Below the pieces are notes generated by a model. The model was not told where the DNA came from, made no database searches, and saw only the letters and a program-made list of their open reading frames with translations. Of a stretch of DNA of 64,000 nucleotides, positions 1,248-9,910 are shown in pieces (positions within the stretch are counted from its first letter, which is position 1; each line of letters starts with the position of its first letter). This stretch comes from Rubripirellula sp. Its GTDB lineage: Bacteria; Planctomycetota; Planctomycetia; Pirellulales; Pirellulaceae. A program made the position numbers and the translations under genes. The stretch is taken from positions 384,001 to 448,000 of the forward strand of contig OZ244207.1 of NCBI GenBank assembly GCA_965216875.1. The letters run 5' to 3'.

Positions 1248-2804
1248 CTAGATTTCTGGCGTTGGCGTTTCGCACAGTTTGCGAAGTTTCTTCGGCACGC
1301 GATTGAGTGGGACGGCGGCGACACCATACATCACCATGGGCTCGCCCCAGTTCAGTTCTTCATTGGATCCCATTTGTATCTTCGACGGACGATTGACCAA
1401 ACACATCCATATGGAAAGCTCTCGGTCGACACTCACGCCCGCCCCGATACCCGGTTCGTCACGATCAAGGAAGGAACCGTTTTCGAAGATATGGGGGCCT
1501 TCATCCAAACCGATGACGTCGCCAGTTTGGACATAGTTGTCGGTGAGCCAAGCGGGGTGTGGTAGTCGATCGTCCCAGAAAACGAAGACGCCAGCAGCTT
1601 GGGCAAGGCTGAGATAGATTTCGACGTCGTATTGGCGTTTACGGTTGTTGAAGAGTTTGACGTAGTCCGCCCCAACCAGATAGTTGGGGATGCCTCGCGA
1701 ATCGGCACCGTTCCATTGGTGATAACCACGATCGGCATAGGCCAACGCATCTTCGCGAAGTCCCGCGGGAACGATTTCATAGAAGCAGCGTCGACCCGCT
1801 TTGGTTTTCAAGTTGTCGGTGACACCGGAAATGACGCTCGCCTTGGGGACGGCGAAACGTCCCGTTTCATTGGCTGAGGGAAACCAATGCGAGACAATGG
1901 CTTCAAGCGCTTGGACGTCTCCTGCCGGGCTCAGTTGAAGCCCTTCGCCGATCCGCAGCCGTCGTGGTTGCGTGCTCGCGTTGAAGGCCGTGCTTTTGAC
2001 GTCGACTTCGCCGGAAAAGACGGCGACGCTTGTGGTTTCGTCGTCGCCGACGCGGACACCAAACTGCGTGCCCAGATCGACCACGTCCGCGCTCGGCGTT
2101 TCGACTGAGAATCCGATTGCCTCGGGGCCAACCGACGCACGCATTTGTCCTTGTTCAAGCCAAACGCGCATGCGTGAAATCGGTGTGATTGACGTCGGGC
2201 CGCGGACAGTGACTTCCGCGCCGTTATCGAAATCGAGATCGAGTTGGCCGCCAAACAGGATGACTTCTTCGCCCGCTCGCACCTGGGCGGTTCTTTCGTA
2301 AATGCGACGGTTACCGATAAACCAGCGGACATTGTCTCCTTTACCACTTACCGTTGCGGTGGCGACCTTCTCGTTGTCGTTCGAACGTGTCAAAGCAAAT
2401 GGGGCGACGACGGCAAGGACCGCTGCTGCGATCGCCACAACGATGGCAAGCTTGCGGCTGTGACTGGTTTGAGATCGCGTCGGTGCGGCGTCGTACTGTT
2501 CGGCCTCGTATCGTTCGGCGTCGACAACACATGCCTGGGTCAACTCCAGATCGCAACTCGTTTGGTCATCCAGCACCGACCGTGCTTGCTCTTGCGAGAT
2601 CGCATTGATCGAAAACCAAGCGTGGATTTGTCGGTAGTCAGAATAGATCTCGCGGGCACGTTGGCTCGACTTGAGGATCTCTTGCAACCGCTGGAAATCG
2701 GCAGCGTCGATGGTGTTCTCGCAGTGCGCCGCCGCGAGCATTCGAATCTCGCCTTCATCGAGCGGCTCGTCAGGCGATCGGTTGCCTTGAATCGGTTGGT
2801 TCAT
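1248..2804 (-). CDS. FecR-domain anti-sigma factor
   Basis: N-terminal anti-sigma helix region, one TM segment, FecR motif GFSVETPSADVVDLGTQFGV..VAVFSGEV; directly downstream of the ECF sigma. Confidence 0.85.
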   Translation of the reverse strand: MNQPIQGNRSPDEPLDEGEIRMLAAAHCENTIDAADFQRLQEILKSSQRAREIYSDYRQIHAWFSINAISQEQARSVLDDQTSCDLELTQACVVDAERYEAEQYDAAPTRSQTSHSRKLAIVVAIAAAVLAVVAPFALTRSNDNEKVATATVSGKGDNVRWFIGNRRIYERTAQVRAGEEVILFGGQLDLDFDNGAEVTVRGPTSITPISRMRVWLEQGQMRASVGPEAIGFSVETPSADVVDLGTQFGVRVGDDETTSVAVFSGEVDVKSTAFNASTQPRRLRIGEGLQLSPAGDVQALEAIVSHWFPSANETGRFAVPKASVISGVTDNLKTKAGRRCFYEIVPAGLREDALAYADRGYHQWNGADSRGIPNYLVGADYVKLFNNRKRQYDVEIYLSLAQAAGVFVFWDDRLPHPAWLTDNYVQTGDVIGLDEGPHIFENGSFLDRDEPGIGAGVSVDRELSIWMCLVNRPSKIQMGSNEELNWGEPMVMYGVAAVPLNRVPKKLRKLCETPTPEI

Positions 2805-2816
2805 CGCGTTCTCTCG

Positions 2817-3344
2817 TTAGTTAACCAGTTTCTGACGGGAGATCGTGCGTTCAACACAGCGTTGTAACGAACCACGAATTCGCGCTAGACGTTTGTAAAT
2901 GGTGCTTTCTGGGGCGCCCGATGCGTTTGCAAGCCGATGGACGTTTTCGCCTTCGAGGTACCGGCGTTCAATCAATTCACGATCGGGTAGCGGCAACTTT
3001 TTGAGGCATTGGCGAACCATGTCAAATCGTTGCTCTTCCTGACGCTCGATTTGTTCCATCGAAAGCGTCTCCATCAAGCTCTCGTCGAACCAAAGCCGAT
3101 CTCGGGCGTGGCGCTGTCGATAACGCAACACGCAGTTGTACGCGATGCCGCACGCCCAGGGCAGGAACTCTCGTTCCGGGTCGTACTTTTCCATCGACTG
3201 CCAGAGGGCGATCGAAACTTCCTGCATCAAATCATCGACGTCGCTTCGGTTGGACACGAGCGTTGTCAGGTAGCCGTAAATTCCCCATTGGTTTTTCGTC
3301 AAAAAGCAGACGAAATCCTCTTTGGATATCTGTACGGATGACAA
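2817..3344 (-). CDS. ECF sigma-70 factor (Planctomycete/Verrucomicrobia type)
   Basis: DVDDLMQEV..LW, FLPWACGIA (region 2); CLKKLP..DRELI..RY and IYKRLARIR..L..CV (region 4). Confidence 0.92.
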   Translation of the reverse strand: MSSVQISKEDFVCFLTKNQWGIYGYLTTLVSNRSDVDDLMQEVSIALWQSMEKYDPEREFLPWACGIAYNCVLRYRQRHARDRLWFDESLMETLSMEQIERQEEQRFDMVRQCLKKLPLPDRELIERRYLEGENVHRLANASGAPESTIYKRLARIRGSLQRCVERTISRQKLVN

Positions 3345-6951: not shown

Positions 6952-8145
6952 CTAGTCGAGTACGCGGGTGACCACGCCTGAACCAACGGTGCGGCCGCCC
7001 TCGCGAATTGCGAAGCGGTCACCGTCACGAATCGCAATGGGTTGGCCAAGCGAAACATCGAGTTGAACGCCGTCGCCGGGCATCACCATGTCGATGCCAC
7101 CAAGCACGCGAGTTTTGCCCGTCACATTCGTCGTTCGAAAGAAGAATTGCGGTGTGTATCCGTCAAAGAACGGAGTGTGTCGACCGCCTTCTTCCTTCTT
7201 CAGCACGTACACTTCAGCCTCGAACCGTTGTCGCGGCATGATCGTGCCGGTAGCTGCCAAGACTTGCCCTTTGCAAATCATGTCATGGGCAGTCTTTCGC
7301 AAGAGCAGACCAACGCTGTCACCAGCTTGGCCGCTGCCCATTTCTTGACCGAACGATTCCACCTGAGTGACAACGTCGCGAGTCGGCTCGCTGGCGAGAC
7401 CAACGATCTCGATGTTGTCACCAGCTCGGACAATCCCCTGTTCGATCCGGCCGGTCACCACAGTCCCGCGTCCACCGATTGAGTAGACGTTTTCGACCGG
7501 CATCAACAATGGCTTGTCGACCGATCGAATGGGATCGGGAATCGCGTTGTCCAATGCAACAAGCAATTGCTCGATGCACTCGATCGCTTGCGGATCAGTA
7601 GGGTGATCGTGCGCGATCATCGCCGAACCTCGAATCACAGTGATGTCGTCACCGGGATACCCGAACTCGGACAGCAATTCACGCAGGTCCATCTCGACCA
7701 GGTCAAGCAACTCGGGGTCGTCGACCAGATCGCACTTGTTCATGAACACAACCAAATGGGGCACGCCAACTTGCCGTGCCAGCAGCAAGTGTTCGCGCGT
7801 TTGAGGCATCGGGCCATCGGCAGCCGATACCAACAACACCGCACCGTCCATCTGGGCAGCGCCGCTGATCATGTTCTTGATGTAGTCGGCGTGACCTGGG
7901 CAGTCGACATGCGCGTAGCGTCTGTTTTCAGTCTCATAACGAACGTGCGAAGCGATCACGGTGACTGTCTTGTTCTTGTCTCGAACAATACCTCCGCGCG
8001 CGATCGCCTCGTAGCTCTTGTAGTGGGCCAATCCCTTTTCGGACTGCACACGCAACAATGCCGAGGTCAAAGTCGTTTTTCCGTGGTCGATGTGACCGAT
8101 GGTGCCAACGTTGACAGCCGTCTTTTCGATAGCGATTTGAACCAT
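6952..8145 (-). CDS. tuf: Elongation factor Tu, divergent stand-alone paralogue
   Basis: [55 protein letters not shown] at 8145 preceded by GGAGG. Confidence 0.95.
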
Positions 8146-8317
8146 TGCTCGTAAACCTCCAGTTTCAAAGTGAACCGGTCGCGTCACTCGCCAGTGACCA
8201 AGGTGAGCAGCCTTGGAAACCTTTTTGCCCGCTCGGGCGCCAGAGGAACGACAACGACAACAAAGTGAATGGGATCCGGCGTATTTCACGCCATGCTTTG
8301 GGGACTTGATCACACAC

Positions 8318-8356
8318 AAAAAAAGCCCGCTCGATTTGCTCAATCGGGCGGGCTTG
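8318..8356 (-). terminator. Attenuator-type intrinsic terminator in the tuf leader
   Basis: Minus strand CAAGCCCGCCCGATT-GAGCA-AATCGAGCGGGC-TTTTTTT, about 170 nt upstream of the tuf ATG. Confidence 0.85.
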
Positions 8357-8385
8357 CGATTTGCGTCTCTTGCAATGCTCTTGCG

Positions 8386-8469
8386 TCAACACACACAACA
8401 TGCCAAGCCCGGCTCGACAGAAGACTGCGAGTCGGATGAGGAAGCTGGTGAGGATGACGAAGGTTGCAT
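8386..8469 (-). CDS. Putative 27-aa leader peptide MQPSSSSPASSSDSQSSVEPGLACCVC
   Basis: ATG with AAAAGG 8 nt upstream; ends 30 nt before the terminator; contains a copy of the terminator 3' arm. Confidence 0.6.
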   Translation of the reverse strand: MQPSSSSPASSSDSQSSVEPGLACCVC

Positions 8470-8656
8470 TGCAAAGACCTTTTGCGGAGGTGTCTCCAAA
8501 CGTTGGATCGCAATGCCAGACACGATGCCGGCAAAAGGGTTCGCATCAGTTTCGAGATCACGGCGAACCACGTGCCGTCCTTGCGTGTCCCCTGCATTGG
8601 AATCGAACGACGACTTCGCAACCTTTTTCGTACGCTTTGATCAAGCGTTGACATCT

Positions 8657-9910
8657 ATGGCGAATTTTGACGCTGGTTTCTTCAGCAAAGTTCTCGGGGA
8701 CAATGGGGCCGCTCTCACACTTCGCGTCGAGCGTTACCTCCGTGACGCGACGCCCAACGACGCACTTGTCGCTTGCAGCGATCTCGATGTTGAACAATAC
8801 AGCAGCCTTGGTCATTGCAGCTTGAGGCCCACCGAATCTCCGCCGCCCCATTTTTGTCGCTACTGGGGTGGCGAGGACCATGACCAGCTCTTCAGCTCTT
8901 TTGAGCAGGTGGTTTGGGAAGTGGATTGGCAAGATCAAACGCTTCAAGTCGTGAGTGTGCAATGGGAAACCAGTTGCGGTAGCAGCAGTCGCGATTGGAT
9001 TGTTGCTTCCTCAATCGAACTTGCCGAGGCGTTCTTGTTAGATGTCGAGCGAAAGACACATGCACCCGGCGAAGCGATTCTCGTCTTCAAGAACGGCTAC
9101 TGGCGGCGCAGCAGTGCGTTGTTCGAAACGGTTCAGTCGTCTTCATTCGATGATCTCGTCCTCGCCGACGATCTTAAACGCGTTATTCGTCAAGACTTCA
9201 ACCAGTTTCTCAAATCGGAAACGCGTTACAACCAATTGGGGATCGCATGGCGCCGGGGTGCACTGCTAATTGGTCCGCCTGGCAACGGCAAGACTCATTG
9301 TGTCCGCGCGCTGATTAAAGAGCTCGATGTCCCGTGCCTCTACGTGCAAAGCCTTGCTCACAGTCACTACACAAGTGAGCAGATGTGGGACCAAGTGTTT
9401 AGCCGCGCGCGAGGCCTTCGCCCCTGCGTGTTGGTGTTGGAGGACTTTGATTCTCTGGTCGATGACGAGAATCGTTCGTTTTTCCTAAACCAGTTGGACG
9501 GGTTTCAACGCAATCACGGGATGATGATCTTGGCGACGACGAATCATGTCGACCGAATTGATTCATCGATCGTGGATCGTCCCAGTCGATTCGATCGAAA
9601 GTACCATTTTCGCATTCCAACCAAAGCTCAACGCAGCGAATTTTTCTCCGGTTGGCAAAAACGGTTGGCCCAAGAAACGGGCTGGGATGACTCCGATATC
9701 GATCATTTGGCGATGGTGACAGATGGTTTCTCCTTTGCCTATCTCAAAGAACTCGTCGTCAGTTCAGTGATGCAATGGATGCACGATTCGAATGAAGACT
9801 TCTCTGCCGTTGCTTCGGCACAAGCAAGTCTGCTTGGTGCTCAAATGAAGACCGAAGTCGATGCTCCACCCGTCCGCCGCAGACGGCGACGCGACCGAGG
9901 CAGCACGTAG
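8657..9910 (+). CDS. AAA+ ATPase (single AAA module, BCS1-like)
   Basis: GPPGNGKT Walker A, LVLEDFD Walker B, TTNH..RID..DRPSRFDRK second region of homology; start set at ATG 8657. Confidence 0.88.
   Translation: MANFDAGFFSKVLGDNGAALTLRVERYLRDATPNDALVACSDLDVEQYSSLGHCSLRPTESPPPHFCRYWGGEDHDQLFSSFEQVVWEVDWQDQTLQVVSVQWETSCGSSSRDWIVASSIELAEAFLLDVERKTHAPGEAILVFKNGYWRRSSALFETVQSSSFDDLVLADDLKRVIRQDFNQFLKSETRYNQLGIAWRRGALLIGPPGNGKTHCVRALIKELDVPCLYVQSLAHSHYTSEQMWDQVFSRARGLRPCVLVLEDFDSLVDDENRSFFLNQLDGFQRNHGMMILATTNHVDRIDSSIVDRPSRFDRKYHFRIPTKAQRSEFFSGWQKRLAQETGWDDSDIDHLAMVTDGFSFAYLKELVVSSVMQWMHDSNEDFSAVASAQASLLGAQMKTEVDAPPVRRRRRRDRGST

Follow-up and report, generated by a model that had tools for sequence, protein, structure and literature searches.

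The stretch of DNA analysed here (64,000 nucleotides (nt) of Rubripirellula sp., assembly GCA_965216875.1, contig OZ244207.1, positions 384,001 to 448,000 of the forward strand; termed the window and numbered from its first letter) carries on its minus strand a second, divergent gene for the elongation factor EF-Tu (the tuf paralogue). The 5' leader of this gene probably contains a ribosome-mediated (leader-peptide) transcription attenuator, a reading to which a probability of about 0.72 was assigned on the basis of sequence comparison and RNA folding. In total, 31 distinct leaders of this type were found before the same divergent EF-Tu paralogue; their carriers belong to two families within a single order of planctomycetes (Pirellulales), and all 31 contain a short upstream open reading frame (uORF), a stem-loop in the 3' half of the uORF and an intrinsic terminator. 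The frame and the codon choice of the uORF indicate that it is read as codons, and the stems are preserved by paired substitutions.

Leader organisation in the window

Coordinates of the leader parts refer to the minus strand unless stated otherwise. A weak Shine-Dalgarno (SD)-like sequence, AAAAGG (8483-8478), is followed after 8 nt by the ATG (8469) of the uORF (8469-8386, read from the sequence), which comprises 27 sense codons and a TGA stop and encodes MQPSSSSPASSSDSQSSVEPGLACCVC. Its ten Ser codons, every one of them UCN, lie within codons 4-17 (8460-8419), a run assigned as the putative control codons from codon counts and mask folding (described below). In the minimum free energy (MFE) structure, a stem-loop designated 1:2 (8435-8409) is formed within the uORF, with region 1 (GACUCGCAG) paired to the return strand CUGUCGAG. 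The intrinsic terminator (8356-8318, from the sequence and RNAfold) is located 30 nt past the uORF stop and consists of a 5' arm (AAGCCCGCCCGA, 8355-8344), a 3' arm (UCGAGCGGGCUU, 8334-8323, reading TCGAGCGGGCTT) and a tract of seven U (8324-8318), with a hairpin energy of -18.3 kcal/mol (RNAfold). Region 2, the candidate antiterminator strand (CCGGGCUUGG, 8412-8403), is complementary to the terminator 5' arm: codons 18-22 of the uORF hold TCGAGCCGGGCTT, which is the terminator 3' arm plus one C, and CGGGCUUG of the uORF pairs with CAAGCCCG of the 5' arm at -15.7 kcal/mol, a value matched by 0/300 dinucleotide shuffles of the uORF. The ATG of tuf (8145) lies 172 nt past the U tract. For the strand 8300-8490 as a whole, the MFE was -76.3 kcal/mol (z = -4.83), and none of 200 shuffles equalled it.

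Most of these parts had been proposed in an earlier note made from the letters alone. Its uORF of 27 codons with ten Ser, behind AAAAGG-8 nt-ATG, was recovered to the base (8483-8386), and the terminator with a 7-U tract 30 nt past the uORF, the repetition of the 3' arm with one inserted C in codons 18-22 and the distance of about 170 nt between terminator and tuf ATG were all found as it described them.

The MFE structure of the window's leader is dominated by a 14-nt long-range helix, in which GGUCUUUGCAAUGC (8479-8466, over the uORF SD and AUG) is paired with GCAUUGCAAGAGAC (8378-8365), a stretch past the stop codon. No equivalent of this helix was seen in the other aligned leaders by inspection by eye, and the predicted helix may represent a lineage-specific extra block on uORF translation.

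Conservation across genomes

EF-Tu paralogues were searched for in 121 genomes of the family (Pirellulaceae). Paralogue-type EF-Tus (66-79% identity) were present in about 11 family genomes besides that of the window, the others having the housekeeping type only, and the leader was shared with the window at eight of the ten paralogue loci that have upstream DNA. A pattern made from the most conserved part of the leader and scanned over 185,579 species genomes returned 28 loci, 27 of them in Planctomycetota (Stieleria, Rubripirellula, Rhodopirellula, Aporhodopirellula and metagenome-assembled genomes (MAGs) of Pirellulaceae) and one a chance match in Puia; a tuf paralogue follows 45-65 nt downstream in 26/28. 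After dropping five duplicates and the loci L066 and L067, 29 distinct leaders were retained for the alignments A2 and A3. Two more leaders (L076 and L078), from a different family, were obtained by searching 151 genomes of the order with a covariance model, which completed the set of 31. The uORF, whose preservation in relatives was one of the points on which the earlier note had made its proposal depend, is found in 31/31 leaders, each before the orthologous tuf paralogue, together with the terminator and a candidate competing arm within the uORF. Within the window's own genome, no further copy of the leader was detected by BLAST or with the covariance model.

Some loci depart from the common layout. 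In L013 and L046, an insertion of about 90-150 nt is located between the promoter-like boxes and the uORF, with an inverted repeat inside that of L013. The tblastn match to the paralogue is split in L047 (two pieces in different frames) and weak in L044 (57% identity), with the leader kept in both; possible explanations are frameshifts or pseudogenes, or assembly errors. One locus of a Pirellulales MAG (L067:1630-2044) lacks tuf but still has element B (the structured RNA described below) and the SD intact, behind the promoter-like box, a uORF that has degenerated and a hairpin that is weak; it looks like a remnant left after gene loss.

The uORF as a coding sequence

The uORFs of the 31 leaders have 18-29 codons and begin with ATG (30 leaders) or TTG (one leader). 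From the uORF stop to the terminator 5' arm there are 20-30 nt in 29 leaders and 41 nt in two. Despite differences in length, 29/29 aligned leaders keep one and the same frame between start codon and region 1, and length changes between these two points are always multiples of three. At region 2 the frame differs in 4/29 leaders, the nucleotides being kept. It follows that the 5' part of the uORF is constrained as codons, whereas the 3' part is constrained as RNA. The peptide sequence is poorly conserved apart from its richness in Ser and Thr.

Codons were counted in 18 representative uORFs (426 codons), with the long ORFs of this genome as reference. Ser accounts for 25.4% of uORF codons (6.7% genome-wide) and Thr for 12.2% (5.8%). 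The synonymous choice is also skewed: TCA makes up 49/108 Ser codons (45%; genome share 0.109) and ACA 19/52 Thr codons (genome share 0.132), while AGC occurs five times and AGT never (genome shares 0.231 and 0.126, together 36%), which gives 103 UCN against 5 AGY codons. The excess is bound to the frame, TCA being found 49 times in frame and 11 and 3 times in the other two frames. In this genome, tRNA-Ser(UGA) is encoded by one gene and tRNA-Ser(GCU) by three; no tRNA gene lies in the window.

According to a theoretical study, attenuators are made sensitive by rare synonymous codons (PMC1183508), and the codon choice of the uORF, as read from these counts, is that demanded by this theory for a sensitive attenuator. 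During serine starvation of Bacillus subtilis, ribosomes are slowed by UCN and not by AGC or AGU codons (PMC3862929), a pattern with which the codon choice of the uORFs also agrees.

The uORF was also considered as the precursor of a thiopeptide-like RiPP (a peptide made by the ribosome and then modified after translation). This candidate was rejected: Cys is not conserved, no leader-core layout is present and no YcaO- or dehydratase-like genes occur in 24 kb.

Stems and competing pairing

A hairpin followed by a U tract was found in 31/31 leaders, the tract being interrupted in four. In the 29 aligned leaders, pairing reaches 94.7% in the terminator helix, where three pairs show double changes; the equivalent of the 1:2 helix is 86.2% paired, with double changes of the AU-for-GC kind. 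Taken together in alignment A3, the 1:2 helix (region 1 CUCGUC with region 2 GACGAG) and the terminator have 91.4% of cells paired and five double-changed pairs; 0/500 shuffles were as good and controls with the helices slid along the alignment reached 28-56%. Lineages of the L013, L014 and L058 type carry CUCAUC/GGUGAG-type replacements, and in L078 the arms of the terminator are entirely unlike the others in sequence, yet form a hairpin of -35 kcal/mol.

For the competing pairing, the best partner of the terminator 5' arm was always found in the last ~10 codons of the uORF or across its stop. The complementarity was equalled by at most 15/300 dinucleotide shuffles in 18/29 leaders. In L013, region 2 has changed in concert with both arms of the terminator, and the window and L047 use different antiterminator registers, with pairing preserved.

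Folding with a masked ribosome

Leaders were folded with a 28-nt ribosome footprint masked, either at full length or as a transcript ending just past the terminator 5' arm. In the truncated transcript of the window, 9-11 of the 12 nt of the 5' arm paired with region 2 when the aminoacyl (A) site was placed at codons 10-14; without a ribosome, or with the A site at codon 16 or 27, the 5' arm was unpaired. Positions of the A site up to about codon 15/16 (the Ser run) permitted this pairing in the window, and later ones blocked it. Across the 31 leaders, the boundary of the A-site positions that permit the antiterminator falls right after the conserved Ser-Ser codons. Further downstream, an OFF block (at least four consecutive positions) was clear in 24/31 leaders and borderline in 2/31.

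Points weighing against attenuation

Several results weigh against the attenuator reading. Its weakest link is the antiterminator, which is plausible on the present alignments and foldings. The complementarity was not above shuffles in 11/29 leaders and in L078 (17-86/300 shuffles as good), and when scored in fixed columns the antiterminator was 83.7% paired with two double-changed pairs, a result reached by 17-103/500 shuffles. When the window's leader was folded to equilibrium at full length, the terminator formed whichever ribosome position was masked; any regulation must therefore be kinetic. No clear OFF block was obtained on masking in 5/31 leaders. The truncated transcript already preferred the antiterminator by MFE without a ribosome in 21/31 leaders, region 2 being hidden in only 10/31, so that absence of translation may mean ON, unlike in trp.

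The interpretation given in the earlier note is supported in its architecture and logic, its parts on switching with these limits. Three further components of the leader, described below, had not been named in it: an ECF-type promoter, a second conserved RNA structure and an anti-SD hairpin. Its competing arms do pair in the window, but exceed shuffles in only 18/29 leaders; the alignment bore out the uORF in 31/31 leaders but gave modest covariation between the competing arms (two double-changed pairs); and its proposal that a ribosome slowed on the Ser run frees the antiterminator agrees with masking of truncated transcripts (24/31), but not with the full-length leader, in which the terminator always forms.

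Other points concern the parts around the switch. The SD sequences ahead of the uORFs are weak (purine-rich GGAAA or AAGG is present before the uORF in many, not all, orthologous leaders). A simple terminator scan did not list the 8356-8318 hairpin and listed the uORF stem 8419-8401 instead, we suppose because a 9-nt loop and an inner mismatch fall outside the scan rule. A sigma-70 promoter was not found by a simple scan. The combined share of Ser and Thr ranges from 20% to 55% across leaders, some being equally rich in Asn, Asp and Gln; the set of sensed codons is therefore not uniform. Finally, two orthologues of the paralogue (L010 and L011, in genomes G044 and G086) are without any leader: these EF-Tus (74-76% identity), each encoded directly behind a different gene in the same orientation, split off close to the base of the paralogues' group.

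Element B and read-through to tuf

Beyond the terminator, the leader contains a conserved structured RNA of 80 nt, designated element B (8258-8178) and delimited by covariation. It consists of an outer stem (8258-8243 with 8192-8178), invariant nucleotides at the junction, CUGGCG (8243-8238) and AAAAAGG (8226-8220), and a hairpin (8219-8195) whose 7-nt loop, CUGCUCA (8210-8204), is invariant. Between element B and the gene, a UUCCU-like anti-SD strand (within 8175-8166) pairs with the tuf SD GGAGG (8160-8156), as indicated by covariation; this helix is 93.1% paired with two double-changed pairs. For the whole structure including the anti-SD helix, 92.9% of cells were paired over 30 sequences and 16/27 pairs were changed on both sides (71 cells); 0/500 shuffles were as good and slid controls reached 35-54%. 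Within the outer stem, nine of 13 pairs carry double changes. Element B is single-copy in this genome according to the covariance model, and a search of 7900-8900 on both strands gave no Rfam match for it at E<=1, T-box included (only a weak Trp_leader match was returned). It is thus well supported, from the alignments, as a new structured RNA.

At the tuf start, the sequence GAGC-N-AUG (8150-8143) includes a GAGC that is complementary to GCUC in the element B loop. This GAGC is invariant in the 29 tuf-linked rows of alignment A1 and present in L076 and L078, and it is absent at all 19 canonical tuf starts having upstream sequence. A loop-to-GAGC pseudoknot is possible; both sides are invariant, hence outside the reach of covariation. 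The CUGCUCA loop is carried on a stem of at least 5 bp in all 31 leaders, and has the size of an anticodon loop, a U33-like layout and GCU at the anticodon positions.

The 5' strand of element B starts 12-70 nt past the U tract, and at most 21 nt past it in 7/29 leaders. The covarying outer stem implies that both strands of element B are on one RNA, and the short spacer leaves too little room for a separate promoter in those seven leaders; from these two points together, tuf must be reached by read-through of the terminator.

With its covarying stems, invariant junction and loop nucleotides and an adjacent hairpin that hides the SD, element B resembles riboswitches and the mRNA operators of ribosomal proteins or aminoacyl-tRNA synthetases. 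It differs from them in that the outer stem and the anti-SD hairpin share no nucleotides, and no obvious two-state switch could be drawn.

Candidate promoter

Promoters recognised by extracytoplasmic function (ECF) sigma factors have a -35 element with GAAC and a -10 element with GTC at a fixed spacing. The sequence GCGAACC-N14-GTGTCT (8544-8518, minus strand), about 45 nt ahead of the uORF, is of this form: its -35-like box (GCGAACC, 8544-8538) was assigned from its conserved position and likeness to ECF promoters, and its -10-like box (GTGTCT, 8523-8518) from the aligned leaders. Upstream of the uORF, G[CTG]GAACC-N14-[GCA]TGTC was found in its strict form in 23/29 leaders and in a relaxed form in 27/29, and also in L076 and L078. 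We infer an ECF-type promoter, a pattern which alone does not prove which sigma factor is used, with transcription starting near 8510, a few nt beyond the -10-like box.

The motif GCGAACC-N14-GTGTC occurs at seven sites in the genome, where about one would be expected from our own calculation. At the locus G000:C1:3735999-3737086 (L072), a site precedes an ECF sigma gene (3735999-3736526; Pfam Sigma70_r2/r4/ECF) by about 530 nt, and this gene is followed by a possible anti-sigma gene; the further sites are at 3426050, 915945, 567182, 3972042 and 7069925. Some of the sites are upstream of a ferritin-like gene that has a short-chain dehydrogenase (SDR) gene behind it, and of a Pyridox_ox_2 (pyridoxamine-oxidase-family) gene, and the motif-bearing genes may form a small stress regulon.

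The EF-Tu paralogue

The tuf paralogue (8145-6952, minus strand) encodes 397 aa with all three EF-Tu domains and intact GTPase motifs (Pfam; match to EF-Tu in PDB with E 1e-160), and shares 63% identity with this genome's housekeeping tuf. A hairpin and T-run after its stop codon (6929-6893, minus strand), read from the sequence, is the likely end of a monocistronic transcript. The controlled gene is thus a complete and apparently monocistronic EF-Tu, and not a maker or charger of the sensed amino acid. In a tree of EF-Tus of Pirellulaceae, 19 housekeeping EF-Tus form one group (support 100/99) and all paralogues, the leaderless two included, are on the other side.

Comparison of 25 leader-linked paralogues with the 19 housekeeping EF-Tus of the family gave 14 fixed differences, with changes in domain 2 and at the domain interface; among them are (housekeeping to paralogue) 261 G to Q, 236 R to Q, 264 M to S, 335 Y to F and 359 N to G. 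Residues 261 and 236 are positions 257 and 233 in E. coli (numbering from the PDB alignment), which we take to be GE2270A and pulvomycin resistance sites. The fixed changes could equally be read as an altered aminoacyl pocket.

Neighbouring genes

On the plus strand, an ORF of 565 aa for an AAA ATPase (8213-9910) nominally covers the whole leader. Over its first 445 nt, the GC content is flat by codon position (0.557/0.514/0.527), the 148 codons upstream of ~8657 (8213-8656) have no coding-like base periodicity, and a coding-like pattern is found only from ~8657. The AAA ATPase therefore probably starts near 8657 (MANFDAG...), its overlap with the leader is most likely an open-frame artefact, and the leader would sit in a divergent intergenic region. 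Assignment of the terminator as the end of a neighbouring gene was considered and rejected: the neighbour in the window is divergent and the upstream genes differ among relatives.

About 5 kb from the tuf paralogue, a PMSR (methionine sulfoxide reductase) gene (583-1200) adjoins genes for an ECF sigma factor (2820-3344, minus strand) and its FecR-type partner (1251-2804, minus strand). This sigma/FecR pair (1251-3344) was considered as a possible cognate regulator of the leader promoter; no copy of the promoter motif was seen by eye upstream of it.

Proposed mechanism

In the mechanism that we propose, transcription would begin at the ECF-sigma-type promoter and a ribosome would translate the uORF of 18-29 codons. 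Ser and Thr codons, for the most part rare UCA and ACA, crowd the first two-thirds of this uORF; the tRNA-Ser(UGA) encoded once in this genome presumably decodes UCA. A fast ribosome would cover the G-rich region 2 while the polymerase makes the terminator, and transcription would stop about 170 nt before tuf. A ribosome held up on the Ser/Thr run, or one that never loads, would leave region 2 free to pair with the terminator 5' arm, and the polymerase would read through. After read-through, element B and the anti-SD hairpin would probably set the usage of the tuf start site. The net logic would be that slow decoding of 'hungry' UCN and ACN codons raises the spare EF-Tu, and possible causes are a shortage of Ser- or Thr-tRNA at nutrient exhaustion, a fall in the amount of active ternary complex, or translation inhibitors.

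A more elaborate version, in which the leader gauges translation capacity in two stages and feeds back on elongation, is put forward tentatively and with considerable doubt. Here the UCA and ACA codons, presumably decoded by tRNAs of low gene copy, would time the ribosome against the polymerase and so report on the supply of Ser/Thr ternary complexes. Element B, with its invariant UGG-containing junctions, its anticodon-loop-like hairpin and a possible pseudoknot between loop and start site, would be a new sensor that responds to a tRNA, to a small molecule or to the EF-Tu paralogue and gates the translation of tuf. The EF-Tu, with its remodelled domain-2 pocket, would be specialised for poorly delivered Ser- and Thr-tRNAs or for inhibitor resistance.

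Alternative explanations

With the same leader parts, the natural trigger could be an antibiotic by which ribosomes or EF-Tu are slowed or trapped, and the paralogue would then be drug-insensitive; we regard this as unlikely. The location of the fixed paralogue changes suits it, as does an ECF promoter, which would fit a stress or envelope signal, and so does the likeness to the leaders of erm, ABC-F and whiB7 genes and to the resistant extra EF-Tu of antibiotic-producing actinomycetes (EF-Tu3 of S. ramocissimus is reportedly resistant to three inhibitor classes). Binding of GE2270A to domain II of EF-Tu, as stated in PMC9529903, was counted on the same side. The assignment of the resistance sites, however, is tentative. 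The frame-specific bias towards UCA and ACA, with avoidance of AGC and AGU, suits a sensor of amino-acid or tRNA supply and would not be needed by a general drug sensor, and a drug-specific arrest peptide is improbable because the peptide is poorly conserved. In addition, no biosynthetic or resistance genes are nearby in the window, and the neighbours differ between genomes.

It is highly improbable that uORF and terminator together are a small gene or RNA in their own right that ends at the terminator, with tuf transcribed from its own downstream promoter, for example a sigma-54-like TGGCG-N-GGGCAC in element B. The terminator is strong (about -18 kcal/mol, 7-U tract), some of the peptides have Cys-rich tails, and about half of the leaders have GG-N10-GC within CTGGCG...GCAC, as in a -24/-12 promoter. 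Sigma-54 promoters strictly require GG-N10-GC, however, and do not tolerate a spacing of 11-12, which is that of the window and the whole Stieleria/Rubripirellula group; a sigma-54 promoter in element B was rejected on this spacing in the window and its closest relatives. Moreover, a start inside element B would split the covarying strands of the outer stem, the spacer past the terminator is too short in the seven leaders mentioned above, the unit was never found apart from a tuf leader and is unique in this genome, and no peptide-modifying enzymes are encoded within 24 kb.

Least probable is an RNA attenuator that binds a protein or ligand without involvement of translation, the open frame being incidental: the keeping of region 2 and the stems as nucleotides even where the frame differs, the weak SDs of the uORFs and the presence of element B as a structured, possibly ligand-binding RNA in the same leader are in its favour, but against it stand the start codon in 31/31 leaders, the common frame to region 1 in 29/29 with length changes in threes, the strong preference of TCA for one frame and the scarcity of G in the 5' two-thirds of the uORF (helix counts were confined to the three named ones).

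Comparison with known systems

Leader-peptide attenuation is textbook knowledge for amino-acid operons, the classical cases being trpL, hisL, thrL and leuL, with pheM-pheST of E. coli as a case from the translation apparatus. From its sequence, the leader described here is probably of this known type, on an unusual target. It has in common with trpL, hisL, thrL, leuL and pheM a short leader rich in rare regulatory codons and a stem in the leader; its putative antiterminator would, as in them, use one strand of the terminator, and the proposed race of ribosome and polymerase is that of a published model (PMC1183508). The differences are that the target is an EF-Tu paralogue instead of a biosynthetic enzyme or synthetase of the sensed amino acid, that the regulatory codons are those of Ser and Thr, with Asn, Asp and Gln in some lineages, that region 2 is inside the uORF and not past its stop, and that an ECF-looking promoter is present, together with a second structured RNA and an anti-SD hairpin beyond the terminator. 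The Rfam family Trp_leader (RF00513) scored 19.4 bits at 8317-8411 (E 0.45), below its threshold of 41.

The leaders of erm, ABC-F and whiB7/wblC genes likewise place a uORF and an intrinsic terminator before a gene that helps translation under stress; here, by contrast, no arrest peptide is conserved and the codon bias points to tRNA supply. The sinR gene of B. subtilis is similar in having UCN, and not AGC or AGU, as its sensitive Ser codons, but these are within the regulated gene and lower its translation, whereas here they are in a leader and would raise downstream transcription (PMC3862929). Functionally, the nearest case is the tuf3 (actEF-Tu2) of Streptomyces, an extra EF-Tu induced by starvation under positive stringent control: it too is a divergent, non-housekeeping EF-Tu thought to serve in starvation or stress, and it differs in that the available excerpt of its description mentions no leader-peptide attenuator (PMC4342817). 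A literature search that did not cover subscription journals gave no account of attenuation acting on the gene of an elongation factor or occurring in Planctomycetes.

If the attenuator reading is true, decoding speed at rare Ser and Thr codons would feed back directly on the decoding machinery through a second EF-Tu. The leader offers an entry to the question of what divergent 'spare' EF-Tus are for, and adds a new structured RNA (element B) and a candidate ECF-type promoter motif for a group whose promoters are poorly known.

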